Shown piece after piece: positions 1,415 through 17,452 of a stretch of 64,000 nucleotides of DNA. Positions within the stretch are counted from its first letter, which is position 1, and each line of letters begins with the position of its first letter. The notes beneath the pieces were generated by a model. The model was not told the origin of the DNA, ran no database searches, and worked only from the letters and a program-made list of their open reading frames with translations. Both the position numbers and the translations under genes were made by a program. The DNA comes from a virus, in IMG/VR virus record IMGVR_UViG_3300029822_000007, positions 31 through 64,030 of that record. One strand, 5' to 3'.

Positions 1415-2251
1415 TTATACATATCTAGGTTTATAACTTGTAGTTACTTCTAATGTTATATCATGTTCATCTGACATAACTGCATATGGGTTAACATTAA
1501 TTGCAATTGATTCACCACTGCGTTTCACCGGTAATACTGGAAAATCACCATTAAATTTGAGTGGTGTTACAACATTATTTCTATAGGTTTTAAATGTTTC
1601 AGTATCAACCTCGGCAGTATCACCATTATTTAAACCTATAAAAGTAAATTGATTTGTTACAAAAGAATCTAAAATATTAAATGTGCCGGGTTTATTAATA
1701 CCAAAATAAAATCCAGTATCTGTGGTTAGCCCTGATACTACTCTAGCATTAATATTTAAAGGTGAGGCAACATTACCCTGTGGCACCACTGTTATTGCTT
1801 GTGGTATTGTACTATTAAATACCAGGGTATCTGTTTGTGATACCACTGGTAAATAACCATAACCACTACTTAAAGTATACTTCACTAAATATAAATAATT
1901 ATTACCATCAATATTAGTATCCGGGTCACCATACCACGTAACTTCCGGGTCACCATTTAGTATTACATCATACAAAAATTGAGCATCATTAAATTGTATA
2001 GTTGCATTACTTAATTCTTTTGTAATATTACTGATGCTAATTAAAGCATCAGTTTTAGTTAAACCATGTACCAGCAATGATACTGTTAATGGTCTTTCTT
2101 TAAAAAGCAATGAAGTAATTAGAGGGGAAGGTGCCAGCCTTGACCAATATGAAGTATATTCAGCTTTATTGGTACCAAACGTATACTCTATTAAATCTGC
2201 ATTTAAATCTAATATACTTTTATCATTTATTGTCATACTTAAATCTGCCAT
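1415..2251 (-). CDS. Distal tail protein (Dit) 1
   Basis: Directly follows the TMP; siphovirus Dit-like size and ends (GDFP, YKPRY.). Confidence 0.75.
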   Translation of the reverse strand: MADLSMTINDKSILDLNADLIEYTFGTNKAEYTSYWSRLAPSPLITSLLFKERPLTVSLLVHGLTKTDALISISNITKELSNATIQFNDAQFLYDVILNGDPEVTWYGDPDTNIDGNNYLYLVKYTLSSGYGYLPVVSQTDTLVFNSTIPQAITVVPQGNVASPLNINARVVSGLTTDTGFYFGINKPGTFNILDSFVTNQFTFIGLNNGDTAEVDTETFKTYRNNVVTPLKFNGDFPVLPVKRSGESIAINVNPYAVMSDEHDITLEVTTSYKPRYV

Positions 2252-5200
2252 TATTTCCTCCTCCTTACATTACCATTAATCTTTCTTGATATTTCAGTAG
2301 ATAAATAATCAATTGATTCCCTATCTGTAAAGGCATATTTGCCATCAAGGTGTAATTCAACTTTGGCAGGGGTACCACCAGTAGTATTTAAACTATCCTG
2401 TGCTTTCTTCACTAAATTTAAATTATTATCACCTATTACATTATTTGCATTTTCAAAAACATTACTTATGCCACTAACACCAGCTTGTACGCCAGTTACT
2501 AATCCTTGTAGAGTATTTAAAACAGAAGTCATATTCGTAACTAAATTATTAGTTTGCATATTACTTAAAACTGTTTCTCCTCCTCTGAACCATTTTAACG
2601 CATTTCCCAGTACAACCTCAAGTCCTTTTTCACCTACTGCATGTGCTCCCGGGGTTGCATTATTTGTTCCGGTTGCATAACCAACATAATTTCCACTAAA
2701 TAAATGTGGTATATTATATGGGCTACCATATCTAGCTTTAATATAATTTAAGGCTGACATTATATTGTCAATGGGGTTCATTATATTACCATGTCCACTA
2801 GCCGCATAACTGTTAAAAGTAGAACCTAACATCTGCATTAATCCAGTGGCATGTTCTCCTCCCACTGCCTGACTATTAACAGATAATGGGTTACCACCTG
2901 ATTCTTTCTGTACTAAAGTTTGCAATGCTGGCAACCATGCTAGAGGCTTTCCTGATTGTGCTAATGCAGTTGTAAGCCATGCACCTACTTTGGCACTACC
3001 AACAATACCATGTGCAAAATTAATAGCACCACCGAATACTTTCTGTACTACTGCCTTAATATGTCCGGCACCACTCAGCAGAGCATTTTCAAGCCCTTTA
3101 ATTAAATATCCACCCATTGCATAGGTTTGTTTGGATGGTGAAGCAATACCAAATACTTTCTTCATACCAGTTAATAAATCCTTGGCTAATTTTTTAGCAA
3201 AAGCTACAACTTTACCTCCAATAGCCTTTAAACCATTCCATAAACCTTGCATGATATCCTTACCAATATTTACAAAGTTTTTAGGGAAATTTTTAAACCA
3301 GTTAACTAAACCATTCCACATCTTTTTAATTCCAGCAACTGCCCCAGTTAATAAACTGATTGCACCATTCTTAAAAAAGCTAAATATATTTCTACCCGTA
3401 TTAGCAAATACTGTAGGCATACTTCTAAAGAAATTAACAACCCCATTCCACAAAGCCTTTATACCAGCAACAGCATTAGTTAAAAGAGATATAGCCCCGT
3501 TTTTAAAGAAGTTAAATATACTCTTACCTATATTAGCCATTACACCCGGGAAAGCTTTAAAGAACGCTACTAACCCATTCCATATAGATTTAATTCCCCC
3601 TACTAAACCATTCCATACTGCAAGCCCAGCAACCTTCATTGCATTCCATATCGCAAGACTTACTGCCTTTATACCATTCCAAACACCAGCAAAAAAATTA
3701 CCAATTGCAGAAAATGCAGTTTTAATTCCAGTTACTGCCGCTGTCCAACCTGTAGATATCCCAGCAATTGCAACATGCACACCGGATTTTATACCATTCC
3801 AGATTCCACTAAAAAATCCAGTAATACCGCTCCACGCACTCATAATAGTATTTTTAGCACTTGTAAATATTCCAGTAACAACCGCCCATACCTTTTTAAA
3901 ATACGGTGCTAACTTATCCCAATTTTTATATATAATTAATGCCGCTATGGCAATCCCATATATAGCAATCATTACTGGATTAGCCCCTAAAGTTAAAACA
4001 TTAAATGCTTTACCAATTCCACTTATAGCAGTAGATACAGCTTTTACATCCTTAACTATAGTAAAGGCTTGATGTATACTTTGCATCGCTTTAACTGTTT
4101 TAGCAAATATTAATAATGCAGGTCCAATTGCCGCTACTACTCCACCTACTGCAACTATAAATGTTTGCGAAGCTGGTGACATCCTATTAAAAGCCTTTAC
4201 TAAATTACCTAAATGGTCAGTAATACTTCTTATAGCAGGTGTCATAGTTTTACCTATCGCAGTAGCCGCTGATTCCAATGAACCCTTTAAACCTTCTATC
4301 GAACCTTTCAAGTTATCTTGGTTAGTTTTTGCCGCCGCTTTAGCCGCACCATCTGAGTTTTTGAGTTCTTTAGTTAAGCCTTTTAATTTATCTTGACCAT
4401 CACCAATTAATACTTGCATACCACTTAAAGCATCAGAACCAAATATGGTTGATAACGTTAATGCTTTTTGTTGCTGAGTCATCCCTTTAGTAGAAGATTG
4501 TAATTTACCTATAATTTCATTTAGTGGCAACATTTTTCCATTAGTATCAAAAGCACTAAATCCAATCTGTTTCATAAGTCCAGCCGCTTGTTTAGATGGG
4601 TTAGACAAACTATTTAATGCACTTCTTAATGTAGTACCAGCCTGTGAACCCTGTATACCTTGGTTAGCCATTTCACCAATCGCCGCTGTAACTTCTTCCA
4701 TACTCATACCAGCAGTATGAGCAATTGGTGCCACATATTTCATAGCTTCACCGGTACTGGCAACACTTGCATTTGTTGCATTAGCGTTCTTTGCTAATAC
4801 ATCTGCAACATGTCCAGCCTGTGAAGCCGCTAAGCCAAATCCTCTCAATGTAGTAGCCGCTATATCTGAACTTGTTGCCAAATCCTCTCCTGAAGCCGCC
4901 GCTAAGTTCATCATACCCGGCATAGCACTAGTAATTTCATTTACTGAGAAACCAGCAGAGGCTAGGTTTTCCATACCTTCAGCCGCTTCACTAGCACTAA
5001 AAGATGTGGAAGCACCCAAATCAATAGCCTGTTTTCTTAATGTCTCCATTTGTGAACCTGATGCTCCTGCAACAGATTGAACTCTACTCATTTGTGCATC
5101 AAAGTCGCTTGACATCTTTATTGCCGCCGCTCCAACACCCACAATAGGTAGGGTTACATGTTTAGCTAAAGAAGCTCCAACAGTATTTGCCGCACTTCCT

Positions 5201-5340
5201 AATGCTGTTATACGTTTGCCAGTACTTTCACTTCCATTGGCAAATGTTTTTAAATCATTCTGAGCTGATTGTAGGGAGGCTTTGAATGGGCTTGTAGATA
5301 ATGCCAATGTTGCCATTATTGTTCCAGCACTTAATGCCAT
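2251..5340 (-). CDS. Tape measure protein with C-terminal lytic transglycosylase (SLT) domain
   Basis: 1029 aa, Ala/Gly-rich TP901-type core, W/F-periodic repeats; ESGGNP...ATGLMQ lysozyme-like motif. Confidence 0.95.
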   Translation of the reverse strand: MALSAGTIMATLALSTSPFKASLQSAQNDLKTFANGSESTGKRITALGSAANTVGASLAKHVTLPIVGVGAAAIKMSSDFDAQMSRVQSVAGASGSQMETLRKQAIDLGASTSFSASEAAEGMENLASAGFSVNEITSAMPGMMNLAAASGEDLATSSDIAATTLRGFGLAASQAGHVADVLAKNANATNASVASTGEAMKYVAPIAHTAGMSMEEVTAAIGEMANQGIQGSQAGTTLRSALNSLSNPSKQAAGLMKQIGFSAFDTNGKMLPLNEIIGKLQSSTKGMTQQQKALTLSTIFGSDALSGMQVLIGDGQDKLKGLTKELKNSDGAAKAAAKTNQDNLKGSIEGLKGSLESAATAIGKTMTPAIRSITDHLGNLVKAFNRMSPASQTFIVAVGGVVAAIGPALLIFAKTVKAMQSIHQAFTIVKDVKAVSTAISGIGKAFNVLTLGANPVMIAIYGIAIAALIIYKNWDKLAPYFKKVWAVVTGIFTSAKNTIMSAWSGITGFFSGIWNGIKSGVHVAIAGISTGWTAAVTGIKTAFSAIGNFFAGVWNGIKAVSLAIWNAMKVAGLAVWNGLVGGIKSIWNGLVAFFKAFPGVMANIGKSIFNFFKNGAISLLTNAVAGIKALWNGVVNFFRSMPTVFANTGRNIFSFFKNGAISLLTGAVAGIKKMWNGLVNWFKNFPKNFVNIGKDIMQGLWNGLKAIGGKVVAFAKKLAKDLLTGMKKVFGIASPSKQTYAMGGYLIKGLENALLSGAGHIKAVVQKVFGGAINFAHGIVGSAKVGAWLTTALAQSGKPLAWLPALQTLVQKESGGNPLSVNSQAVGGEHATGLMQMLGSTFNSYAASGHGNIMNPIDNIMSALNYIKARYGSPYNIPHLFSGNYVGYATGTNNATPGAHAVGEKGLEVVLGNALKWFRGGETVLSNMQTNNLVTNMTSVLNTLQGLVTGVQAGVSGISNVFENANNVIGDNNLNLVKKAQDSLNTTGGTPAKVELHLDGKYAFTDRESIDYLSTEISRKINGNVRRRK

Positions 5341-5351
5341 TTATATCACCC

Positions 5352-5621
5352 TCATCGATTATATTTTTGCATCTGTTTTTGAATAAGTTTTGCAACTTCT
5401 TCATTATTTTTAGGTGCAACCTCGTCAATCCAATGTGGTGTTTTCCTCCATTTTAATTTTCCATCATCTTCATAATCATAATACATATAACTTTGAATGT
5501 AGGCTATCGCCTCATCAAAACAAAACGCATCATAATTATTTGTTATTCCCAGTATTTGACTTGGAATCTTGTGGTACCTTTCCACTTGGGTTATTATTCG
5601 TAACACGCTCTTGGTCTGCAC
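5352..5621 (-). CDS. Tail assembly chaperone, T (frameshift) portion
   Basis: Overlaps 5536..6009 in the +1 frame directly before the TMP; GTG start has no well-spaced RBS. Confidence 0.7.
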   Translation of the reverse strand: MQTKSVLRIITQVERYHKIPSQILGITNNYDAFCFDEAIAYIQSYMYYDYEDDGKLKWRKTPHWIDEVAPKNNEEVAKLIQKQMQKYNR

Positions 5622-6009
5622 GAAATCGTTCTAACCCTTTTACCCCCAATTGTGCGTAATTAAATATTTCAACTAATTGTGCATCTGTTAAATCTATTTC
5701 AGCATTTTCCAAATCTTCATATGATGGCTCAACCAAACATGATTTTGCTACGACCCTAAATATTTTAGAGGTTTCTTCCATGCTAGGTGCTTTTTTACTT
5801 GATGCCTTACCATTAAACACCTGCTCTGCCGCACCTAACAATGAGTTTGGTATTACACCCTCAACTACTAAATTCATCATTGATACTTTTTTAACTCTTG
5901 CTACGAATGGTATATCATCGTCCCAACCACTAAATTCTACAAGCTTTCCACTTGCTTGCTTTTTTATATCCAACAAACTCGATACTTTTAATTTTTTCTG
6001 TTCTGCCAT
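5536..6009 (-). CDS. Tail assembly chaperone G
   Basis: Position between tail tube gene and TMP; ends with a GVKGLERFR segment containing TTT CGT. Confidence 0.8.
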   Translation of the reverse strand: MAEQKKLKVSSLLDIKKQASGKLVEFSGWDDDIPFVARVKKVSMMNLVVEGVIPNSLLGAAEQVFNGKASSKKAPSMEETSKIFRVVAKSCLVEPSYEDLENAEIDLTDAQLVEIFNYAQLGVKGLERFRADQERVTNNNPSGKVPQDSKSNTGNNK

Positions 6010-6031: not shown

Positions 6032-6053
6032 AAATAACCCTTTCGGGTTTATT
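6032..6053 (-). terminator. Possible terminator hairpin after the glycosyltransferase gene
   Basis: AACCC-gaaa-GGGTT followed by ATTT on the minus strand; short stem. Confidence 0.45.
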
Positions 6054-6957
6054 CACAATTTAATTTTAGCATAGCTTGCACATATTTACAACTACACTTA
6101 TTCTTATTTACCCAACTAAAATTTTTACCAATCGGACTTTCACGTACATATGCACCTTTAAAAAATAAATGGTCGTGCATATCAGGAGTTACGCCTGCGT
6201 TATGATATATTTTAGTTTTATACCAACGTTCTATATCGTCGGTAGCCCAACAAAAATCCAGTTCCTTTGATATCATTGGTACCAAACCAAACAAAGGCAT
6301 ATTATATAATTGAGCCCACATCTCAGCTGTCCATTTTTGTATTGGTGTGTAACCCAGTCCATGTGCATCAATATATCTTTGTTCATTTTTACAAAAGAAT
6401 CTATATAAAGTAATACAATCTATATAAACCTTGTGCCAGTATTTCGTCTGCGGTTTCCTTATTAGCCATTGAGCACCCGGGGCAACCTTACAATATTTTC
6501 TAATATCAGTTTCATTTACACCAATTAAATTACCCATTTTAGTAACTAAATCTTTCCCTTTACTATCTATATAATCGGTACCTAAATAACCTGTGCAATC
6601 ACTGCCATACCAAATTTTATCATTATTTTTAAATTTAGTAAAATCAGGTAGCTCTCTAAATATAACATCAGAATCCATATAGAAAAAATCTTCATTTTCA
6701 AATTGTGGGTTATGCTTTAAAAACTGCCAAAACAAATAAGGTTTTACACTGGGTATATATTTATTACTTGTATTATCATCAGGGTACACATAACACCTAG
6801 CACCATATTTTTCTTCAAAATATTTAGGCACTGTCGCATTATATTTAGTAAATAGTAGTATTACATTGGTAACTCCTAAACTTTTAAGGTTGTTAAGGCA
6901 CACGTCTAATTCCCACTGAAACCGTTGGATAGCTGGTTGAGCTAAAATAAAATACAT
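6049..6957 (-). CDS. GT-A fold glycosyltransferase, similar in motifs to GT95/GT96 peptide O-glycosyltransferases
   Basis: FFYMDSDVIF (DxD after a hydrophobic strand), upstream YIPSVKPY, downstream KWTAEMW and YHNAG; strong GGAGG RBS. Confidence 0.75.
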   Translation of the reverse strand: MYFILAQPAIQRFQWELDVCLNNLKSLGVTNVILLFTKYNATVPKYFEEKYGARCYVYPDDNTSNKYIPSVKPYLFWQFLKHNPQFENEDFFYMDSDVIFRELPDFTKFKNNDKIWYGSDCTGYLGTDYIDSKGKDLVTKMGNLIGVNETDIRKYCKVAPGAQWLIRKPQTKYWHKVYIDCITLYRFFCKNEQRYIDAHGLGYTPIQKWTAEMWAQLYNMPLFGLVPMISKELDFCWATDDIERWYKTKIYHNAGVTPDMHDHLFFKGAYVRESPIGKNFSWVNKNKCSCKYVQAMLKLNCE

Positions 6958-6979
6958 TCTAATCCTCCTTATTGTATAA

Positions 6980-7007
6980 AATTACACCCACATGTGTGAG
7001 TGTAATT
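6980..7007 (-). terminator. Hairpin between major tail gene and glycosyltransferase (partial terminator/attenuator)
   Basis: AATTACAC...GTGTAATT inverted repeat followed by TTTAT on the minus strand. Confidence 0.55.
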
Positions 7008-7014
7008 AAATTAA

Positions 7015-7617
7015 TTATACAGTTGTAGTTGTAGTAGTTGTAGGTGCAATTGTAGTAGTTGTAGTTTCTTCAGGTAACTCATCAATTATATCAACGGATA
7101 CTGGTGACTGCCCGGAAGCCGCTCTACTGTGGACTGTATATTTTGGTGCCAAAAATTCACCGTCTTTAAAATCAAATTCAGCAGGTGAACCTTTCGAGTT
7201 TGGGTAACTAAATTTAAAATACTTAACAATATTACCGTCTATATCTTTTTCAGCAGTGTATACATTAAATGTAAACTTTGTTCTGTCTACTACAATGCCT
7301 GTAACTGGTGAATCATAGCCAATAACATTGTTATTTTCATCATATCTTAAAGTACCACCATCAACAATTGCAAGCACCTCAGGTATAAATTTAGCATCTG
7401 TTAATTCTATATCAGAACCATACTGTATATCTTCAGTCCTATTTATAGCATGTAACTTATTTTTAGTTCTTAGTATTTGCTCATCACCCTCTGATAATAC
7501 CGCTTTGTAAGATGCTTCAGATGCAGTATCGAACGTAAATGAACGTGGTGTTTCTTCATCTGTAATTATTTCAACCCTTTCAATGTTGACTAAAGGATAT
7601 CCATCTACTTTTGGCAT
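7015..7617 (-). CDS. Major tail (tube) protein with Thr-rich C-terminal tail
   Basis: Position after the neck genes, beta-rich 200 aa; DNA decodes to ...EE-T5-IAP-T7-V. Confidence 0.85.
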   Translation of the reverse strand: MPKVDGYPLVNIERVEIITDEETPRSFTFDTASEASYKAVLSEGDEQILRTKNKLHAINRTEDIQYGSDIELTDAKFIPEVLAIVDGGTLRYDENNNVIGYDSPVTGIVVDRTKFTFNVYTAEKDIDGNIVKYFKFSYPNSKGSPAEFDFKDGEFLAPKYTVHSRAASGQSPVSVDIIDELPEETTTTTIAPTTTTTTTV

Positions 7618-7630
7618 ACATATCTCCTCC

Positions 7631-7975
7631 TTAAATTAGTGGGTGCTGTATTAAATATTGTACACTGCACGTAACCGCTTTAACAGTATCATCAGCAACT
7701 GTGGGAGTTTCAATTCCACTATATTTTAATGCAGTAAAACCCTTTAAATCTATCTTAACATTTTTCTTCAAGTTTAGCAATTCTAACATTTGAGTTCGTG
7801 GTGTAAAAAACATAATATCTACAATTGTGTTACCCACTTTATTAGTATCAAATTGTGCCATTGTTGAATCTTCTTTTATTACAATATATGGGCTTGTACA
7901 GTCATCGGTCTTTTGGTTAACTAAATAAACAGTGTAACCATGGGTAGTTAAAAAATCAAATAATTTATCCATCAT
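7631..7975 (-). CDS. Tail terminator protein
   Basis: Synteny directly upstream of the tube gene; size; PYIVI motif. Confidence 0.6.
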   Translation of the reverse strand: MMDKLFDFLTTHGYTVYLVNQKTDDCTSPYIVIKEDSTMAQFDTNKVGNTIVDIMFFTPRTQMLELLNLKKNVKIDLKGFTALKYSGIETPTVADDTVKAVTCSVQYLIQHPLI

Positions 7976-8325
7976 AATTTATTTAGCACCTCCGACCAGC
8001 CTCTTAATACTTTGCCTTGCCACTTGTCAATTGTGGGTACTAAAATAGCAAATCGCTTTTCCATTGCAAACTCTAAATATTTAAATTGTGGTGTATTACC
8101 CCTCAATTGTATTACTATTTCATTTTTATTATTAACTATTTGGAAATCCATTGTTTGCCTAGATAAACCAGTTCGGTCTGTCCATTTGGCATTCTTTTTA
8201 GCATCTCCCAGCATTTGTTGTGCGGCATCCTTAGCATAATGCTCACAACCATATATTATTTTTTCTTGACAAAACACTGTTTTTTCTAATACATCTTTAA
8301 TATCAACGTGAAAGCCATCTGCCAT
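7972..8325 (-). CDS. HK97 gp10-like neck/tail-completion protein
   Basis: AKWTDRTGLSR...YLEF...RFAILVPT motifs. Confidence 0.75.
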   Translation of the reverse strand: MADGFHVDIKDVLEKTVFCQEKIIYGCEHYAKDAAQQMLGDAKKNAKWTDRTGLSRQTMDFQIVNNKNEIVIQLRGNTPQFKYLEFAMEKRFAILVPTIDKWQGKVLRGWSEVLNKL

Positions 8326-8705
8326 TATTCAACCTCCTTTAACGCCATATTCAAATAAATTTCCATATTTGCTCCGGGTTCTTGAATTTCGAAAGTTTGC
8401 TGGTCATCTTGACTTGTAGTTTCAATAATATCTAATGGCTTAACTTTTAAAGCTTCTTCAGACCAGTCAGTTAAAAAATGCACTGAATTCGGTCCTTTAG
8501 TAAAATTGTTTTCACCCATACTAAAAAATATGGTTGCACTAGATGAATCATCTCTATATAATACACCTGTTAAATTTGTAATTATATTATACGTTCCATC
8601 TTCTTGTCCATATTTATCTTTATGCTTTCTTTTAATGGTTACATCAGTTGGAAATATTTGAATGGCTTGCTTAACAACACTACGCATTCTATCCTTACTT
8701 ATCAT
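8325..8705 (-). CDS. Head closure / head-tail joining protein
   Basis: Synteny and size. Confidence 0.55.
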   Translation of the reverse strand: MISKDRMRSVVKQAIQIFPTDVTIKRKHKDKYGQEDGTYNIITNLTGVLYRDDSSSATIFFSMGENNFTKGPNSVHFLTDWSEEALKVKPLDIIETTSQDDQQTFEIQEPGANMEIYLNMALKEVE

Positions 8706-9013
8706 TGTCCATCAGCTCTATTCATATAATTTATATAATAACCACCTGTGCCACCATTACTATCATCATCAGTAGCCGCTTTATCTGCATACTGTAATGA
8801 TAAATTTTGCCAGTATGATGCGTCCGGGTTTTGTATAGTAATTGGTCCAACTGTTATGCTTTTTTCATTATCCATCTTCATTAAGCACAGTTGTGAAGCA
8901 GTTAAATATACATTACCATTATTTATATCTAAATATTTTTGCAAATCATCATCTGAAAAATATGGGTATTTTGATTCCATTATTAAAAATTTTAGGAGTT
9001 CCAAATCATTCAT
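8702..9013 (-). CDS. Head-tail connector (adaptor) protein
   Basis: Synteny; YFSDDDLQKYL helical motif typical of connectors. Confidence 0.65.
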   Translation of the reverse strand: MNDLELLKFLIMESKYPYFSDDDLQKYLDINNGNVYLTASQLCLMKMDNEKSITVGPITIQNPDASYWQNLSLQYADKAATDDDSNGGTGGYYINYMNRADGQ

Positions 9014-9026
9014 CTTTGTTCCCTCC

Positions 9027-9209
9027 CTATTTTATTCTGCTAACAAGTTTACGTTTCTCCAAATCTGCTACAAAGTTTGCATCTGTCATTTTAAATATTT
9101 CACTTTTAGCTCTATATGCACCATCAACTTTTATATATTTTAAAGCAACCACTTTAATTTCAACTTTTTTAGCCTTTGTAGTAGTTGTAGTAGTTTTTGC
9201 ATCTGCCAT
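9027..9209 (-). CDS. Small basic head-module protein with N-terminal T6 run
   Basis: GGAGG RBS; MADAKTTTTTTKAKK. Confidence 0.7.
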   Translation of the reverse strand: MADAKTTTTTTKAKKVEIKVVALKYIKVDGAYRAKSEIFKMTDANFVADLEKRKLVSRIK

Positions 9210-9283
9210 AATATAATTACCTCCTAATAATCTAATTAATTAAAATGGGAGCTTACGCCCCCAACTTGTCCACACCATTAATA

Positions 9284-10324
9284 TTATTCTGCTACCTTAG
9301 CAAAGAAGCATTCATCTACTCTGTCAAAAGAAGGAAGTGCTAACTGTGAAACCTTAGTTTCAATAGTTACCGGGTCAACTTTTGGCATAGTTGTTATCGC
9401 TACACCTGTATTAACTATAGCAGTATCATGTTTCTTACTACCTAGTATCAAGTCAGCTTCTTCCGGAGTAGTACCATAAATAGTTCTACCTAGTGTGCCG
9501 CTTGGTATCATTGTAACAAAATTATCTTCATAATAATTAAACAATGCACCATTTTCAGCTCTGTAGGTACCATTTACTACAGCAACATTTAAACCTAACT
9601 TAGTGTTTAAATAATTAATAACATCTTGCTGTGTTACTATAACAGCACCTAATCTCTGTGCTTTGAGTTCATTTAGTATGGCAGTATTTTTTAATATATA
9701 ATTTAAAGTGGTTTTAGTTAATACTAAAGTATTAGCAATTCCATATCCATCATCTGTTAATATTTCTTGCCATGCTATTAAATCACCTACTATATCAGCA
9801 TCTGTGTTGCTCCATGCATCTGTACCAGTAAGTTCTACTTTGTGGTTATCAGGTGCGGCATAATCAACAACAATATCACCATCTACAGTAGTAATATTTA
9901 TGCTTGCACGTTGTAATAGTTGAGCTCTTGCCCTCCTCATTTGTACTTCAGCACCGTCTACAAGGTTCTGATAATTATCATATACCTGTGAAAGTAAATT
10001 CTGTATCAAATTTTGGTTATTGGCACCCATTGCCATTATTAGCATCTGTCTATCTTTTTCTTTAATCATTACTGATTCCTTGAAAAATGGCAGTTCTTTC
10101 TTTAAAATATTCAAACTAGCATTTAATGCTCTAGGCTTAACAGCAACATCAAAAGTGCTCATTCTTAATGCGACTGGTTTTTGTTTAGAGCCCTTTGCTA
10201 ATTCTATCTCTGTTCCGAACTGTTTAACTGGTGGGAACAAAGTTTTATCTAATGTAGACTCAGGTGGCAAATTAGTTATATAAAGTGCAATTTGCTGTGA
10301 GTTTATAAATTCCTCTAAAGTCAT
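9284..10324 (-). CDS. Major capsid protein (lambda E-like family)
   Basis: 346 aa after the scaffold and decoration genes; LFP..., GRTIYGTTPEE and DPVTIETKVSQLALP motifs. Confidence 0.9.
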   Translation of the reverse strand: MTLEEFINSQQIALYITNLPPESTLDKTLFPPVKQFGTEIELAKGSKQKPVALRMSTFDVAVKPRALNASLNILKKELPFFKESVMIKEKDRQMLIMAMGANNQNLIQNLLSQVYDNYQNLVDGAEVQMRRARAQLLQRASINITTVDGDIVVDYAAPDNHKVELTGTDAWSNTDADIVGDLIAWQEILTDDGYGIANTLVLTKTTLNYILKNTAILNELKAQRLGAVIVTQQDVINYLNTKLGLNVAVVNGTYRAENGALFNYYEDNFVTMIPSGTLGRTIYGTTPEEADLILGSKKHDTAIVNTGVAITTMPKVDPVTIETKVSQLALPSFDRVDECFFAKVAE

Positions 10325-10352
10325 ATTAATTACTCCTTTCTAAAATTTTTAA

Positions 10353-10751
10353 TTAGGCTTGTGACGTGGAAGTTGTAGTAGTTGGTGCAACTGTAGTAGT
10401 TGTAGTAACTAATCCATCATCTATAAACTGTATCATCTTCAAGGCACTTATTGCAGTTGCAGATGGTGCAGTTGGCATTTTATGGATGTTAATAAAACCA
10501 AATATTATAACTGGCACTACTTCAGTTCCCATTGAATCCGTAAAATCAATATCTTCATATACTACCCCAAAAGCAGTTCCATCATTTACTGTTTTACCAG
10601 TAGCATCAATTATTGTGCCTGCAACTAATTTATTATTTGCATCTAATGTTGCAGTTGCTTTAGCTACCTTAACATTAACACTTAAATATAAATCGTTGTA
10701 TGCTAACAATTGTTTTTGTGCTTCGGATATAGTTCTTATACTTTGACGCAT
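10353..10751 (-). CDS. Head decoration protein (lambda D-like position) with Thr-rich C-terminal tail
   Basis: Between scaffold and MCP; AGTIID...GVVYED; ends V-T5-VAP-T4-STSQA. Confidence 0.75.
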   Translation of the reverse strand: MRQSIRTISEAQKQLLAYNDLYLSVNVKVAKATATLDANNKLVAGTIIDATGKTVNDGTAFGVVYEDIDFTDSMGTEVVPVIIFGFINIHKMPTAPSATAISALKMIQFIDDGLVTTTTTVAPTTTTSTSQA

Positions 10752-10798
10752 ACTATCCCCTCCTCTTTAACTATTATATACTAAAATAGTCATAAAAT

Positions 10799-11458
10799 CT
10801 ACCTATTAATGAATTTACTTAAAGCTTCTTCGACAGATTTGCCGCCAGTAAGGTCTGATTTGTTTTTAGCTAGCAATTCTCCTATTTGCAACTTAGGTTT
10901 ACTTCCATCACCAGCATCATCGCCAGTAAGATGATTACCCTCTGTGCCACCAGCATTAAATGAACCAGTACCAGTTGGCTTTGCAGTAAACAAATAATCA
11001 TCGGATTTCTTCAAACCTTCTATCTGGTCATTTAATCCTATTACTTTGCCACTTTCAGGGTCTAAAACTAATTTATCCATGTCAAGCATTCCTCTTACTA
11101 CTTTGGCATTTTTAGCACCTGAACCTTTCAATGCACTATCTATAGCATTATTAAGCAGTGTGCCTTTAAATTCTTTTTCTTTAGCATCTAATGCTTTAGC
11201 ATTTTCTGTTTTCATAGTATCTATTTTGCCTTTTAATTCCTCATTATCTTTTGTTAGGGTACCTAACTGGGTAAGCTGTTTATCTCTTTTAGCAACCTCA
11301 ACTTTGTAATTATCCCTATCTTTAACTACATTACTGTAGTCCTCTTTTGGTACATATTCAGCTTTATTTACAAAATCAGTATCCTTGTATAAATCTTTTA
11401 TATTCTGTGGCAGTGCCGCATAAGCTTCGGCTCCTATTAATTCTGTTAATTTTGGCAT
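10799..11458 (-). CDS. Capsid scaffolding protein (GP20-like)
   Basis: Coiled coil plus AIDSALKGSGAKNAKVVRGMLD...GLNDQIEGLKKSDDYLF. Confidence 0.85.
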   Translation of the reverse strand: MPKLTELIGAEAYAALPQNIKDLYKDTDFVNKAEYVPKEDYSNVVKDRDNYKVEVAKRDKQLTQLGTLTKDNEELKGKIDTMKTENAKALDAKEKEFKGTLLNNAIDSALKGSGAKNAKVVRGMLDMDKLVLDPESGKVIGLNDQIEGLKKSDDYLFTAKPTGTGSFNAGGTEGNHLTGDDAGDGSKPKLQIGELLAKNKSDLTGGKSVEEALSKFINR

Positions 11459-11459
11459 A

Positions 11460-11654
11460 TTATTTATCCCCCTTAAATTTAAAATTCTTTAATGCTAAAT
11501 AAGCAGTATTCATTGTTAGCATGTGACCATGCTCATCTCTAAAATCTGCTTTATTAATTTGCTCTAATAAATCATTAACCTTGTCTATAAAACTTTTTGC
11601 TGGTTCTAAATCAGCAATGTTTACAGTTACTTTTAAATCATCTACTTTTGGCAT
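11460..11654 (-). CDS. Hypothetical protein
   Basis: ORF track; translationally coupled to its neighbours. Confidence 0.6.
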   Translation of the reverse strand: MPKVDDLKVTVNIADLEPAKSFIDKVNDLLEQINKADFRDEHGHMLTMNTAYLALKNFKFKGDK

Positions 11655-12031
11655 ACTGAATCCCCCTCATATATTTCTTTATAATGTGCAGTTATCATTT
11701 TATTTTTATGTGATATCTGCTTTTGTTCTTCCATTAATTCTTTAGCTTTATTTTCTGAATTATATGCAAGCTTAAAATCATCAGCTGTCATGTGCTTTTT
11801 ACGTTTGCATACACCTTTTAGTTTATGCAACTCATCTTGCAGTTCGGTAAACCTGTTAATATTTTGCCTATATTCAACATCAGCATAATATACAGTGTAA
11901 ACATGACCACAGTGGGGACATTTAAAAAACCCATGTTCTACAGTTTCATCGTCTTCCATTATCTCCGTTTGTATTTTATCAAGGGTGAAAGCTTTATGGC
12001 ACACATCACATGATAAAGTCATCTTATTCAT
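11642..12031 (-). CDS. Zinc-ribbon / coiled-coil hypothetical protein
   Basis: CDVC and CPHC pairs. Confidence 0.6.
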   Translation of the reverse strand: MNKMTLSCDVCHKAFTLDKIQTEIMEDDETVEHGFFKCPHCGHVYTVYYADVEYRQNINRFTELQDELHKLKGVCKRKKHMTADDFKLAYNSENKAKELMEEQKQISHKNKMITAHYKEIYEGDSVCQK

Positions 12032-12104
12032 ATAACCCCTCCATACAATATATTTATTCGTCTATATCATTATATAATAATATAAGATAATAGTAAAGTA
12101 GGAA

Positions 12105-12131
12105 TAAAAAATAAGCCTCAATGGGCTTATT
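12105..12131 (-). terminator. Rho-independent terminator
   Basis: AATAAGCC...GGCTTATT followed by a T-run on the minus strand. Confidence 0.7.
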
Positions 12132-12525
12132 TAGTTACTACAAATCTAAAACAATAAGGGTGCATTTTATAACCATCTTTTGATACTAAATTAATAAGCA
12201 TCACAGTATATAGTTTGCCTTTGTGGTAAGGCTTTAAATTCTTAATAAATAATGTTTTCTTATCTTTACTAGTAGTAATCTTAATAGGTACTGTACTACC
12301 ATCTACACATTGCATCCAAATTCCTGCTAAATATTTAGTATTAATAGGTCTTGTCAGTGTAATTTTCCATGTCTTATACTGTGGCACATTCTGTTTTATA
12401 CTTCCTATCTGTGCCATATTTGCTGGTGCTTCCTTCTCTGCATGTACTGTAGTATTAAAACCCACAGTGCCTACCACAATACTTAACCCAACCATTAATC
12501 CTGCTACCATCTTTTTAATTTTCAT
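12127..12525 (-). CDS. Secreted protein with bacterial Ig-like domain
   Basis: Signal peptide (MKIKK + hydrophobic + VHA); KTWKITL...KTLFIK..PY..G..Y pattern of clostridial Ig-like domains. Confidence 0.7.
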   Translation of the reverse strand: MKIKKMVAGLMVGLSIVVGTVGFNTTVHAEKEAPANMAQIGSIKQNVPQYKTWKITLTRPINTKYLAGIWMQCVDGSTVPIKITTSKDKKTLFIKNLKPYHKGKLYTVMLINLVSKDGYKMHPYCFRFVVTK

Positions 12526-12527
12526 AT

Positions 12528-12674
12528 TTACCCCTCCTTAATACTTTTGTTTACCTTTTTCAATGTTCGTGCGAGTAGCTTGCAATAAAATTCTGCATCT
12601 GCATAATCTTCATTTAATAATTTTTGCTCAATAATGTAGGCATATTCTTTCATTGCTTTATTTAGCTCCTCCAT
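12528..12674 (-). CDS. Small hypothetical protein (48 aa, MEELNKAMKEY...), not in the ORF track
   Basis: GGGAGG RBS directly downstream of the early promoter at 12703-12731. Confidence 0.65.
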   Translation of the reverse strand: MEELNKAMKEYAYIIEQKLLNEDYADAEFYCKLLARTLKKVNKSIKEG

Positions 12675-12702
12675 ACTTTAACCTCCCTCACTTGTTGATA
12701 TT

Positions 12703-12731
12703 ATTATATAACATTATTATATAATATGCAA
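12703..12731 (-). promoter_or_regulatory. Early sigmaA-type promoter E1
   Basis: TTGCAT-17-TATAAT. Confidence 0.85.
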
Positions 12732-12754
12732 GGGTTTTTATAAAATTATTTAAA

Positions 12755-13783
12755 TTAATCCTCCGGGTAACTATAATCACCAGTATTATTTCTTTTAGCA
12801 GTAGTAAATATACCATTGGCTCCCCTATCTGCTTTCCAATTATCAAATGACCTATCTAATGCAGGGTTTGGCTCTATACCTCTAATCCACCTATTAATGT
12901 GCTTGCCTACTTGCTCTAAGTCTTGACTAAATGTGGCATATTGTGTGCATAAGCAGTTAGGGTGTGGCACTGGTACCTTATTAACCGGAAAATTGCCAGT
13001 ACCTAAATTATAGTTATCTTGCTTGGCATTATAATCACAAATATCTGGTCCAAATGGAATTACCTGTCTTATTTCATGTTGTGATGATAATTCCCAGTGC
13101 ATTGCATCAACAAATGGGTCGTTCTGCACCGCCGCCACATTGGATAAATAATACATATGGTTTATACCTGTACGCATTAATCGTTGTGCATTATAGTCCA
13201 CTTGCTTATTAGTACCAGGGTAAACCTTACTCCAACTCCAATCCTTTTTAGCGTCAGGGTTAACATACTTTGCTAAATCTTCCATCATTTCATTATAGGT
13301 TTTATGTTGTGCAATTCCTTCTGCTAAAACAATTTGGATATCCTTCGCATACTTATTATTTATATTCCAAATTCTCTTACTTAACCCAATACCATCTTTA
13401 TATAGTTTGCCTTTTAATAGTCCTTCTATAACACTGTTTGGCACGCTAAATAGCATATCAATCACATCTTGAGGAATGTGTTCTGTGGTACCACTTTGTA
13501 ATACATCGCCATATATTTCAGTATATAATTTTGACGATTCTTTAAATGCATTACTACCTATATCATTTATTTTTAAATTTAAATTTTTTAAATAAGGGCG
13601 GATACCTCTCAAGTATGCCGCCATTTCAATTTTATTCAAACTGGTTTTATTGCCAGCCTTAAAACGTTTCATTAATTCTTTAGCAATATTAATATAAACA
13701 CGCCTTATCTTTTGTGCAGTATCTTTAGTTAACTTTAATTTGCTATCGTTCAATGCTTTATATAAATCATCTTCATATCCCAT
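12755..13783 (-). CDS. Minor head / head morphogenesis protein (SPP1 gp7/Mu F-like)
   Basis: Follows the portal; C-terminal PVPHPNCLC motif. Confidence 0.8.
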   Translation of the reverse strand: MGYEDDLYKALNDSKLKLTKDTAQKIRRVYINIAKELMKRFKAGNKTSLNKIEMAAYLRGIRPYLKNLNLKINDIGSNAFKESSKLYTEIYGDVLQSGTTEHIPQDVIDMLFSVPNSVIEGLLKGKLYKDGIGLSKRIWNINNKYAKDIQIVLAEGIAQHKTYNEMMEDLAKYVNPDAKKDWSWSKVYPGTNKQVDYNAQRLMRTGINHMYYLSNVAAVQNDPFVDAMHWELSSQHEIRQVIPFGPDICDYNAKQDNYNLGTGNFPVNKVPVPHPNCLCTQYATFSQDLEQVGKHINRWIRGIEPNPALDRSFDNWKADRGANGIFTTAKRNNTGDYSYPED

Positions 13784-13784
13784 A

Positions 13785-14081
13785 CTAATCCTCCTTAAAC
13801 ATCTTTGGGTTATCTTTAACCACCTGATATAATCCTTTGCCTAGCTTAACAACCTGCTCCTCTGTTAAACCTATATCAAACATATCATCAATACCATGAA
13901 CTACTTCATGCACCAGTACGCATTTTTGTAGTTCTCTATCCACTGTACCATCTATACTAATTTTGCCAGTATCACATCCAATGGTGCCATAGCAAACCTC
14001 ATTATCATCTACAATTTGATGATTGTATATATCAACTAAATAATCCATAAAGCCCAGTTTTACACATTTAGGTATTCTCAT
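13785..14081 (-). CDS. Small HExxH metallopeptidase-like protein
   Basis: CVLVHEVVHGI. Confidence 0.55.
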   Translation of the reverse strand: MRIPKCVKLGFMDYLVDIYNHQIVDDNEVCYGTIGCDTGKISIDGTVDRELQKCVLVHEVVHGIDDMFDIGLTEEQVVKLGKGLYQVVKDNPKMFKED

Positions 14082-14085
14082 AACA

Positions 14086-15675
14086 TTAATCCTCCTCTTG
14101 ATTATTCATTGTTGTGCTTGTTGTAGTGGTTGGTTCCGTTGTGCTTGTAGTAGTAACTAAATTACCTTCATCATCTAGTATTGGCATTGAGCTTCCGCTC
14201 TCGGCACTGGCAAGTAACGCCTTTTCAGCTATAATATCATTAAATTCACGTACAGCATCTTCATCATCACTGTACTCCTTAATATAAGATTTTGCACTTC
14301 TAACACCGGTTGTAACTTCACTCATTGCAGTTTGCTTATCCTCATCGCTGTCGTCTGGAATTGGATAGTTATGAGTAAATATAAGAGTATATTTTAAGCC
14401 TAGCCAGCTTTTATCAAAATCAGCTATATTTAGTGCCGCACTAGCTTCCAATATAAAATTAATCATTGCTCTAAATATTGGCTCCCAATCAGCCCACTTT
14501 TCTTCACAACGTGCTATTAAATCATTGTACATATAACGCATAGCTTTAGCAGAGGGAATATTACTCAAGTCAGTAACACTTGGCATATCTAAAATATCAC
14601 GCATATCTCTATCTAGTCTATCCAAATAAGCATCAATAGCCGCACTATTACTCATACTATACTCTTGCTTTTGTACTGATGCTTGGTGTCCTTTTTCTAA
14701 TGCTTGCTGTGATGTACGTACCGCCTGCAATCCATTAGGTCTAATTTGTAGCCTATTAACATCGTTCTTATCCCCATCTATAACTACTGTACTGCCAAAC
14801 ATTTGAAATCTTAAAGAATCTGCAAAATCTGAGTTCCTTTTATTATATAAATTTTGTGGTTCTATTAAATCTTCAAGGTCGCTTTCACCATAATCATCAC
14901 CCAGCTCACCGCCATTTACTATTAGCCAGCATGGTATTACACTAAAACCAGTGTTAACTACTTCTGTATTTGCAGGTGTATCAAAATCATTATTAGTATA
15001 AGTTTCAGTAGTCAATAAAACCTGTGGCAAAAATGTAATTCCATCAGGTGCAATCTTGTAGGTATATCTATATAGGTAGTACACCTTTTTAGATTCATCA
15101 TCAGTATCTGTGGTGCCATCATCTGAGTCATAGTTAGCGTTGGTATCTGCCTCTGCAAAGAACACAGCTTCAGTTAATTTGCCATTCTGCATTTTATAGT
15201 TGAAGTTATCAATATCTTCATATTTAATGCTAATGCCCTGCCCCTCGTTTGCCTCTACTCTTAATAGTACCCTCTTCTTTATAGTTGCCATTAAAAAAGC
15301 TTTCTTTGTATTCTTCCAAAAGTTTGTGTTATCAAATACATCATCTATATACTGCCTCAATAATTCTGTATTATTTGCATCATCTAAATTATCCGGTTTT
15401 AATTGTATGTCTGGTGCTATACTAAACATAAACCTTGCCTGCTTCTTTAATAACTGTTTTGTTTTATTTCTTATATCCTGTGTTGGTTCATAGTCTAAAT
15501 TATCAGTAACCTTCCAGCTTTGCCCCAGCCATATAGAATCCAGCTTGGCTAATTCTTTACTAATACATTTGCCTTTGTAAAATATATAATCCTTTAAAGC
15601 TTTTCTTCTTTCATGCTTTTCAACTGCATTAAGGTTAAGCAATACGTTCCTCACATTCCTAGCATTTTTACTCAT
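14086..15675 (-). CDS. Portal protein (SPP1-type) with Thr-rich C-terminus
   Basis: 529 aa after the terminase; GESDLEDLI motif; ends VTTTSTTEPTTTTSTTMNNQEED. Confidence 0.9.
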   Translation of the reverse strand: MSKNARNVRNVLLNLNAVEKHERRKALKDYIFYKGKCISKELAKLDSIWLGQSWKVTDNLDYEPTQDIRNKTKQLLKKQARFMFSIAPDIQLKPDNLDDANNTELLRQYIDDVFDNTNFWKNTKKAFLMATIKKRVLLRVEANEGQGISIKYEDIDNFNYKMQNGKLTEAVFFAEADTNANYDSDDGTTDTDDESKKVYYLYRYTYKIAPDGITFLPQVLLTTETYTNNDFDTPANTEVVNTGFSVIPCWLIVNGGELGDDYGESDLEDLIEPQNLYNKRNSDFADSLRFQMFGSTVVIDGDKNDVNRLQIRPNGLQAVRTSQQALEKGHQASVQKQEYSMSNSAAIDAYLDRLDRDMRDILDMPSVTDLSNIPSAKAMRYMYNDLIARCEEKWADWEPIFRAMINFILEASAALNIADFDKSWLGLKYTLIFTHNYPIPDDSDEDKQTAMSEVTTGVRSAKSYIKEYSDDEDAVREFNDIIAEKALLASAESGSSMPILDDEGNLVTTTSTTEPTTTTSTTMNNQEED

Positions 15676-16033: not shown

Positions 16034-17452
16034 CTAAAATATATCATTGTGCTCCAATAGTTTATTTAGTGTATCTTGACGTTCTGATGCTGGTGCTCTA
16101 TGGTTGGCACCCATACCTTTTCTATAAATACTATCATCATAAGGCTGATTACTTTCCAAATACTTTAATATAGTATTAACAAAATACCTAACAGCGTCCA
16201 TGCAATGGTCGTGTTCCTTTACTACTTTATCTTCACCTTTGGCACTGGCTTTTTCGTCCCATACATATGTGTGAAACTCTTCTTCAGTATGGCTACAATT
16301 TTCAGTAAACAATAATGTCTGCTGTTTAATTAAACTACCTGTTAACCTTATTCCATCTAATACATCATTATTGGCACTAACTACATTATACCCTCTACTT
16401 CTTAATTCAGCAATAAAGGAAGCCGCACTTGGGTCAACTATAATTGTAACTGTTTTATTGTAACCTATAAAATCTTCATAATCATCTGCATACTGTGTAT
16501 CGGTCTTTTGTATGCCTTCTTTCCTACCATCATAATAGTATTCTTTAAAGCACACCCACTGTTTGCCAATCTTTCCCCATAATAAAAATACAGTAGGGTT
16601 CTTGGTACCATAATCACAACTAACATAATACGCTTCATACTCACGTGTTTTAGCCTGCACTATATTAACATTTCTATCAAACATGCTGTATATAATTCCT
16701 TCTGCTTGTACCCACTGCCCTAATATAAATCGTTTATAAAACACGCCGCTATATTGATTTTTATATCTGTTTATTATACGTGTTGTTAAGCTTGGATTGT
16801 CTTCCATCTCAAAGTGTATCCTTAAAGCATTCCTTTTCTTTGCCTTTTTAATATACTTAATATAAAACCAATGGAACGGACCTTCCGGGTTGCAGTTAAA
16901 CCATAATTTAGAACCATCAACTGAGCATCTTGCAGTGGCTTGGTTAACAAAACTCTCAGGCATAAGTGCCACTTCATCAAAGAATACACCAGCAAGTGTA
17001 ATACCCTGTATTAAATCCTGTGATGCTTCATCCTTACCACCAAACACATAAAAGTCATTACTAATAACTTTGCCAGTTTTATCGTCTTTAAATACCACTG
17101 TAATTAAATTATCTGCTCTGTGGTCTTCTATTATATAGTTTAAGTCTGCCAACATTTTCTTTAGTGGCACCAATACATTTCTTCTAAATGCACCAATGGT
17201 TTTACTACAAATAGCGAATGTTTCATCGTTAAAGTTTGCACTAGCCCAGTTAATATAACTTAATACCATAATAACAGTCTTGCCGCTTCTTATTGCTCCA
17301 TCACATATTAGTGTATCACAATCTGCATATGGCGAGCCCTTCATCCACCATGTTAATACTTTTAATTGTTTAAGGCTTGGCGGTGACCAATCAAATGGCT
17401 TAATTTTCTTTTTCTTCATTCTTCCCACTCCAAATCTTATCAACACTCTCAT
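16034..17452 (-). CDS. terL: Terminase large subunit (PBSX/SPP1-like); true start probably MKKKK about 11 codons in
   Basis: Walker A GAIRSGKT, Walker B FFDEVA, nuclease DYG...DPSA...DHCMDAVRY. Confidence 0.95.
   Translation of the reverse strand: MRVLIRFGVGRMKKKKIKPFDWSPPSLKQLKVLTWWMKGSPYADCDTLICDGAIRSGKTVIMVLSYINWASANFNDETFAICSKTIGAFRRNVLVPLKKMLADLNYIIEDHRADNLITVVFKDDKTGKVISNDFYVFGGKDEASQDLIQGITLAGVFFDEVALMPESFVNQATARCSVDGSKLWFNCNPEGPFHWFYIKYIKKAKKRNALRIHFEMEDNPSLTTRIINRYKNQYSGVFYKRFILGQWVQAEGIIYSMFDRNVNIVQAKTREYEAYYVSCDYGTKNPTVFLLWGKIGKQWVCFKEYYYDGRKEGIQKTDTQYADDYEDFIGYNKTVTIIVDPSAASFIAELRSRGYNVVSANNDVLDGIRLTGSLIKQQTLLFTENCSHTEEEFHTYVWDEKASAKGEDKVVKEHDHCMDAVRYFVNTILKYLESNQPYDDSIYRKGMGANHRAPASERQDTLNKLLEHNDIF

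Follow-up and report, generated by a model that had tools for sequence, protein, structure and literature searches.

A candidate glycosyltransferase and poly-Thr tails on virion proteins of a phiCTP1-like Clostridium phage

The late structural module of a phiCTP1-like Clostridium phage contains, directly behind the tail tube gene, a gene for a 302-aa candidate glycosyltransferase (GT), and it is quite likely that this enzyme O-glycosylates poly-Thr tails of virion proteins, giving a glycan-coated particle. The phage is represented by IMG/VR record IMGVR_UViG_3300029822_000007, which is rated complete; the stretch analyzed here (the window) comprises 64,000 of its 64,070 bases and constitutes a near-complete genome. 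The candidate GT is 87–89% identical at the protein level to its counterparts in Clostridium phages phiCTP1 and vB_CtyS-FA88 (FA88), whose hosts are of the Clostridium tyrobutyricum type. All genes of the late structural module discussed below lie on the minus strand, in the order terminase, portal, head morphogenesis, scaffold, small head protein, major capsid, a 60-aa open reading frame (ORF), connectors, tail tube, GT, tail assembly chaperone-like gene and tape measure. An earlier note on this DNA had described a protein with the motif FFYMDSDVIF within the structural operon, right after the tube gene, as well as Thr tails on the tube, small head and portal proteins; all of these are present, at the following positions:

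14086-15675 (-), portal protein, 529 aa, with a Thr-rich tract near the C-terminus (PF05133 SPP1_portal, E 7e-39)
14110-14154 (-), Thr-rich tract of the portal, residues 508-522, followed by the acidic sequence MNNQEED
10353-10751 (-), small head protein, 132 aa, between the scaffold and major capsid genes, proposed acceptor (phrog_909, E 3e-27)
10365-10406 (-), poly-Thr tail of the small head protein, residues 116-129, T5-VAP-T4-S-T
9027-9209 (-), 60-aa ORF after the major capsid gene, possible fourth acceptor, with an N-terminal T6 run at 9177-9194
7015-7617 (-), tail tube protein, 200 aa, proposed main acceptor (phrog_6686 tail tube, E 1e-78)
7021-7065 (-), poly-Thr tail of the tube protein, residues 185-199, T5-IAP-T7
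6049-6957 (-), candidate protein O-glycosyltransferase, 302 aa, GT-A fold, D95-S-D97 motif (phrog_4417, E 6e-122)

Poly-Thr tails and their co-occurrence with the GT gene

The tube protein ends in E-T5-IAP-T7-V and the small head protein in V-T5-VAP-T4-STSQA, while the portal carries V-T3-S-T2-EP-T4-S-T2 ahead of its acidic terminus. Runs of at least four Thr residues occur only six times in the 91 minus-strand ORFs of the window (19,999 aa, 6.8% Thr), and all six are confined to these three proteins and the N-terminus of the 60-aa ORF, where composition would predict (by our own arithmetic) about 0.4 such runs and far fewer of length 5–7. The tails are encoded by a mixture of ACT and ACA codons, with no pure trinucleotide repeat, and they are kept in the independent isolates phiCTP1 and FA88; the run in the 60-aa ORF varies, being T6 here, T3 in FA88 and T4-A-T in phiCTP1. 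An origin of the tails as an artefact of slipped repeats or sequencing errors was considered and rejected, given the mixed codons and the independent isolates, and the tails are therefore regarded as selected protein features. The small head protein had been called a head-decoration protein in the earlier note. Its assignment to the head holds, since PHROGs label it as a head protein, whereas the decoration role follows from size and position and is probable.

Relatives of the phiCTP1 clade provided a natural experiment. A locus search based on the major capsid protein yielded four loci, which served as natural controls, and the tube orthologues, compared at 53–98% identity, fell into two groups. 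In the window, phiCTP1, L208, L209/L004 and L005, the GT gene lies between the tube and chaperone genes, and both the tube and the small head protein are tailed. In ten other loci (L084-086, L211, L212 and L214-218), the tube gene is directly followed by the chaperone gene and the orthologues are untailed: the tubes end in ...LEELP(S/A/V) and the head proteins (110–118 aa) in ...MI(K/Q/A)FL, in each case exactly where the tail of the window protein begins, and the portals of these relatives have no terminal Thr tract. Eight GT-less records, three of them at least 94% complete, were searched over their whole length and no member of the GT family was detected, while the same query finds the gene of the window.

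Three of the GT-less relatives encode a tube protein with an extra C-terminal domain of about 100 aa (e.g. the tube genes L084:12852-13757 and L086:12835-13743). This domain gives a weak match to the Ig-like family Big_5 (E 3e-4, below the Pfam cut-off), which fits an outward-pointing tube C-terminus. The poly-Thr tail and the Ig-like domain may thus be alternative decorations of the same outward-facing end of the tube.

The association extends far beyond this clade. The earlier note had proposed to look across phage genomes for joint occurrence of enzyme homologues and tails, and this was found in both directions. Starting from the enzyme, all of 81 other GT loci contain, on the GT strand, an ORF with a run of at least five Thr residues (T5+), so that no homologue without tails was seen in this set; 18 loci that fell below a stricter first threshold merely have shorter T5–T7 tails. 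The 81 loci contain 160 T5+ ORFs, and in 155 of them the tract ends no more than 12 aa from the C-terminus. Among ORFs of at least 90 aa, C-terminal T5+ tails were present in 152/1538 on the same strand as the GT gene and in 0/670 on the opposite strand, compared with 0/1813 in 117 control viral loci of equal total length (Fisher value 6e-54, not corrected for relatedness). After masking of the tails, the acceptor sequences sort into 23 clusters unrelated to one another, including several capsid-sized and tube-sized families and small Thr-rich proteins adjoining the GT gene; the tag was therefore added many times independently.

Starting from the tails, IMG/VR was scanned blindly for ACN x8, i.e. 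without use of the enzyme. A GT gene was found in 7 of the 118 loci obtained, compared with none of the 117 loci from a control scan for GAN x8 (p 0.007), and all seven GT genes lie on the same strand as the poly-Thr ORF, at a distance of 4–141 nt, or overlap it. Several of these ORFs are large (558–2069 aa): two show Ig- or PKD-like matches and all contain internal poly-Thr linkers, so the coupling of enzyme and tract reaches beyond tails on capsids and tubes. Ten further blind-scan records have C-terminal tails but no GT gene in the fetched stretch; the sole complete one has a GT gene elsewhere in its genome, and the rest are fragments.

On the environmental contigs L137:3207-9413, L172:7135-12111 and L183:3268-8277, ORFs of 1659–2069 aa are directly followed by distant members of the GT family. 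The products have internal poly-Thr linkers and Cys-rich ends, and two of them Ig- or PKD-like domains; they are possibly glycosylated fibres or adhesins.

Among cultured carriers of the GT family, Enterococcus phage VPE25 has a major tail protein ending in T10, and in Lacticaseibacillus phage iLp84 the GT gene is directly preceded by that of a 125-aa mucin-like protein; Lacticaseibacillus phage PLE3 also possesses a homologue. Mammaliicoccus phage vB-SscS-F1 and Arcanobacterium phage TPWB06 combine T9 tube tails with Thr-repeat tracts in the prohead protease and a small neighbouring protein. The tracts in the protease imply that the targets of the enzyme may include proteins absent from the mature particle. 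In these proteases (L339:5047-6162 in vB-SscS-F1, 90 kb, and L340:6918-8039 in TPWB06, 94 kb), three or four internal T5–T7 tracts are located approximately 25 to 55 residues before the C-terminus.

Family, fold and active site of the candidate enzyme

The window GT protein has no Pfam match at E≤1, no NCBIfam match and no sequence match in PDB; its sole family is phrog_4417, which is listed with unknown function. The family is nevertheless large, comprising 758 clusters at 50% identity in a library of 1.84 billion proteins. It is present in 77 records among 50,697 deposited phage genomes, mostly in phages of Lactobacillus, Enterococcus, Staphylococcus and Lactococcus, and nearly all homologues are named 'hypothetical' or 'prophage pi2 protein 34'.

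A single-sequence model was useless (predicted local distance difference test, pLDDT, 43) and was replaced by an AlphaFold2 model built on an alignment of 64 relatives, which reached a pLDDT of 96 and a predicted template modelling (TM) score of 0.92. A Foldseek search of PDB with this model returned 323 chains at E≤1e-3, the top ones all of the GT-A type. The closest solved folds were retaining enzymes of families GT8, GT24 and GT6: glycogenin, LgtC, Skp1 GalT, UGGT and GlyE matched with Z 13.8–14.6, glycogenin giving Z 14.6 over 216 residues (VIA, solved structures). ORF 6049-6957 is thus confidently predicted, from this model, to encode a GT-A fold glycosyltransferase with one Rossmann-like alpha/beta/alpha domain. 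The D95-S-D97 motif comes after strand 90–93, in FFYMDSDVIF. D97 is invariant and D95 is found in at least 90% of the 64 relatives, and both are invariant in 59 long relatives. Further residues invariant in the 64 relatives are Y67, G161, W209, M213, H252, G255, K267, P275 and Y292, and the order DxD, late His and Lys is presumably that of GT8-type metal-dependent enzymes.

Among the 59 long members of the family (above approximately 450 aa), a second glycosyltransferase domain is present in at least 16 (Glyco_transf_7C in 10, GT2 types in 5 and GT25 in 1), while one further long member carries Methyltransf_24 and another radical SAM/SPASM. Such frequent fusion to extra GT domains is expected if the conserved N-terminal domain starts a glycan that the other domains extend or decorate.

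The earlier note had also seen a resemblance to the plant families GT95 and GT96, and this stands at the level of the fold. In a comparison with Swiss-Prot, in which both sides are predicted models, the eight best matches were the Arabidopsis peptidyl-Ser alpha-galactosyltransferase SGT1 and hydroxyproline (Hyp) O-arabinosyltransferases (HPATs), with TM 0.64–0.71 and a root-mean-square deviation (rmsd) of 4.4–6.7 Å over approximately 320 columns. SGT1 was found with E 9e-11 and HPAT1-3/RDN1/PLENTY with TM 0.68–0.71 and rmsd 4.4–4.8 Å, and glycogenin followed behind at TM 0.52. In a fold-cluster library, the protein's own family came first (TM approximately 0.9), followed by algal and protist 'HPAT-like domain' clusters at ranks 4–15. 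The sequence part of the claim fared less well, as only a trace of likeness was detected: Pfam HPAT (PF23452) marks 10% of the nearest Atlas cluster, is sub-threshold in 2 of the 64 relatives (best E 0.05) and finds no match in the window protein. On the phage side, the motifs YIPS(I/V)(R/K)P, DSD and WxAxMW are conserved in the relatives. What the models suggest is therefore a fold likeness to GT95/GT96 rather than membership.

Plant HPATs (GT95) and SGT1 (GT96) are the closest folds beyond the phage protein's own family, although identity amounts to only about 14%. They act on hydroxyls in repetitive, disordered peptide tracts, as is proposed for the phage enzyme, but their acceptors are Hyp or Ser, whereas the proposed phage acceptor is Thr. 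The plant HPATs also possess an extra N-terminal region (residue 1 of the phage protein aligns at approximately residue 60), while the phage protein is a bare catalytic domain. To our knowledge, GT95 and GT96 have until now been viewed as restricted to plants and algae. Family GT8 (glycogenin, LgtC and GlyE of the serine-rich-repeat adhesin pathway) provides the best matches among solved structures and shares the order of DxD, late His and Lys; glycogenin and GlyE likewise work on protein-linked glycans. It differs in that the phage protein has no Pfam Glyco_transf_8 match, that TM is only about 0.5, and that the phage family forms AFDB and Atlas clusters of its own.

Proposed mechanism and alternative explanations

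The proposed system would be a two-part module, composed of a portable poly-Thr tag and a transferase that reads it. A soluble, metal-dependent GT-A enzyme, made alongside the late structural proteins, would move a sugar from a nucleotide sugar to the hydroxyls of the poly-Thr tails in the host cytoplasm. Its acceptors would be the C-termini of the tube and small head proteins, the portal tract and possibly the 60-aa ORF, with the disordered tails modified before or during assembly, so that a brush of glycans, borne by the numerous tube and head tails, would line the exterior of the assembled particle. Thr is the presumed acceptor, and the donor may be UDP-hexose or UDP-HexNAc from the host pool. 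The benefit may lie in solubility, in shielding from proteases and antibodies, or in adhesion. Since the phage protein has no extra N-terminal region, it is taken to be a soluble cytoplasmic enzyme. A search of the genome revealed no GT2-type enzyme encoded by the phage, and with only one GT domain a single sugar or a short glycan is expected; the nearest folds being those of retaining enzymes, an alpha linkage is probable.

The GT gene begins 57 nt past the stop codon of the tube gene and is preceded by the ribosome-binding site AAGGAGG, and the intervening hairpin, identified by RNA folding, has a folding energy of -17.4 kcal/mol (z -5.0; 0/200 shuffles as good). It was not picked up by a simple terminator scan but was picked up by folding, which also revealed a weaker GC hairpin downstream of the GT gene. 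The hairpin between the tube and GT genes is probably a leaky terminator, and the GT would be produced together with the late proteins, in smaller amounts than the tube protein. The gene looks like an inserted cassette, because relatives simply have no such gene at the tube-chaperone junction.

Tentatively, and at somewhat less than even confidence, a broader proposal may be made: the enzyme and the poly-Thr tail would form a self-contained cytoplasmic module for O-glycosylation, able to spread horizontally (a glyco-tag that can be genetically encoded, and its writer), grafted repeatedly onto unrelated capsid, tube and fibre proteins of Clostridium, Lactobacillus, Enterococcus, Staphylococcus and environmental phages, and the enzyme family would be a prokaryotic-viral sister of the plant GT95/GT96 families.

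Phage-encoded GTs that alter host receptors are well known, and GT-A enzymes of the GT8/GT2 type often act on envelope glycans (LgtC and WaaO are among the fold matches). The enzyme might accordingly be directed at a polymer of the host envelope (teichoic acid or a cell-wall polysaccharide precursor, for example) or at some other non-virion target, the tails being unrelated hydrophilic spacers; that its link to a protein acceptor rests on indirect grounds counts in favour of this account. We consider it improbable, as it would leave unexplained why orthologous tube and head proteins gain or lose the tail together with the gene, why 23 unrelated acceptor families are tailed only in GT loci, and why a blind scan for poly-Thr lands beside the GT gene. 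The position of the gene within the late structural operon of a virulent-type phage and the nearest folds, which are peptide O-glycosyltransferases and not lipid or lipopolysaccharide enzymes, also speak against it. A GT-like fold that transfers no sugar, and serves instead as an assembly chaperone, as a lectin-like binder of the Thr tails or as a transferase of sugar-phosphate or another group, seems about equally unlikely. Weaker fold matches (Z approximately 9) to Stealth-type enzymes and GlcNAc-1-phosphotransferases would agree with such a role, but the complete or near-complete invariance of the DxD, His and Lys positions among 64 and 59 diverged relatives is what a selected active site typically shows, and the many fusions to additional GT domains point to a pathway that builds glycans.

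Least probable of all, to the point of being barely credible, is glycosylation of the phage DNA, i.e. sugar modification of hydroxymethyl-pyrimidines against restriction. Enterococcus phages VPE25 and VFW do possess both a homologue of the enzyme and sugar-modified cytosines (PMC4999554), yet the modification in VPE25 was attributed in that report to a separate T4-like beta-glucosyltransferase. The Clostridium phage has no gene for a thymidylate-synthase-like (PF00303-like) hydroxymethylase, and most homologues are found in ordinary temperate Lactobacillus and Enterococcus phages, adjoining capsid or tail genes. Nor do DNA glucosyltransferases, which the earlier note had named as the best structural hits that would speak against its proposal, appear among the fold matches listed; these are GT-A protein and glycan enzymes, with SGT1/HPATs and GT8 as the best.

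O-glycosylation of the Thr tails, as the earlier note had proposed, is thus backed by the fold of the enzyme, its position in the operon and the co-occurrence of gene and tails. Several points weigh against it. The support is computational (comparative and structural), and none of the curated GT families matches the window protein significantly in sequence. Many of the GT loci are interrelated, so that the raw Fisher values overstate independence. In IMG/VR record G009/L092 (76.8 kb, 74% complete), one of the blind-scan fragments, three neighbouring ORFs have T12–17 tails and no match to the GT family was found, making this record a possible exception to the rule that tails come with the enzyme; the contig may lack the portion that holds the GT gene, or such tails may be served by a different enzyme. 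The portal tract is absent in the GT-bearing relative L004 and is therefore not constant. The C-terminus of SPP1-type portals points into the capsid interior, so the portal tail probably lies inside the capsid, with no role in surface shielding. The idea of a glycan coat, also put forward in the earlier note, consequently fits the tube and the small head protein but not the portal. A predicted complex of the enzyme with Mn and the last 60 residues of the tube protein scored 0.02, which can be set beside these points, yet counts neither way.

Gene neighbourhood, known systems and implications

The remaining features of the module considered in this study are:

16034-17452 (-), terminase
9284-10324 (-), major capsid protein (Phage_cap_E)
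6980-7007 (-), 12-bp hairpin and U-rich stretch between the tube and GT genes (RNA folding)
6964-6970 (-), AAGGAGG ribosome-binding site of the GT gene
5536-6009 (-), tail assembly chaperone-like gene
2251-5340 (-), tape measure

Between the GT and tape measure genes, the overlapping ORFs 5536-6009 and 5352-5621 (-) have a layout like that of a frameshifted tail assembly chaperone pair; phrog_6280, found in this region (5352-6009 (-)), is labelled as of unknown function. The tape measure protein (2251-5340 (-)) contains, near its C-terminal third, a lytic-transglycosylase-like motif ESGGNP...GLMQ that was spotted by eye. Within the head module, a 132-aa ORF (12127-12525 (-)) apparently starts with a signal peptide and weakly matches the Ig-like family Big_5 (E 0.003); such a secreted-looking protein is odd amid head genes, and it is kept in phiCTP1 as ORF7. 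A 129-aa ORF (11642-12031 (-)), located between the head morphogenesis and scaffold genes, contains two CxxC pairs and is zinc-ribbon-like.

The only phage virion-glycosylation system documented in the literature searched is that of mycobacteriophages. Virion glycosylation was described for Che8, Corndog and Myrna (Freeman et al. 2023, Cell Host Microbe 31:1216, as cited in PMC12363180 and PMC13313380); according to the summary in PMC12363180, phage-encoded GTs modify capsid and tail-tube proteins to give a glycan-coated particle, and the modification alters antibody recognition. As in the Clostridium phage, where the system is known from genes alone, major structural proteins have their candidate acceptor regions at the C-terminal end. 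The two systems differ in most other respects. The Che8 capsid and tube proteins end in short ...KTGS and ...SDGS sequences, respectively, instead of poly-Thr tails, the Che8 GT genes are placed at the far right end of the genome and not within the structural operon, and the hosts of the phages considered here are Firmicutes, unlike those of mycobacteriophages. Che8 gp108 (GT2 and Methyltransf_24), gp109 (GT2-like) and gp110 (GT25) belong to Pfam families unlike the phage GT. The same domain types (GT2, GT25 and Methyltransf_24) also occur fused in long members of the phage GT family. Alignment of the GT family with gp108-110 by hhalign gave probabilities of 0.06–0.4%, i.e. no homology. Judged from these sequence comparisons, the Che8 and Clostridium phage systems appear to be analogous and not homologous.

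In the literature searched, no link between phages and GT95/GT96 was found, and no account connects the GT family, or poly-Thr tails in phages of Clostridium or other Firmicutes, with glycosylation, which agrees with the statement of the earlier note that no such system was known for a Clostridium phage; absence from this literature is in both cases no proof.

If the proposed reading is true, virions with a glycan coat would be widespread in phages that infect dairy clostridia, lactic acid bacteria, enterococci and staphylococci, including phages studied for therapy such as VPE25, with possible consequences for their stability, aggregation, adhesion and serology. A single enzyme of about 300 aa with specificity for a short poly-Thr tag, working in the cytoplasm of bacteria, would in addition offer an uncomplicated means of site-directed O-glycosylation. 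That its fold resembles those of plant extensin-type GTs raises a testable evolutionary question, and a function is proposed here for phrog_4417 and for hundreds of genes now annotated as 'hypothetical'.

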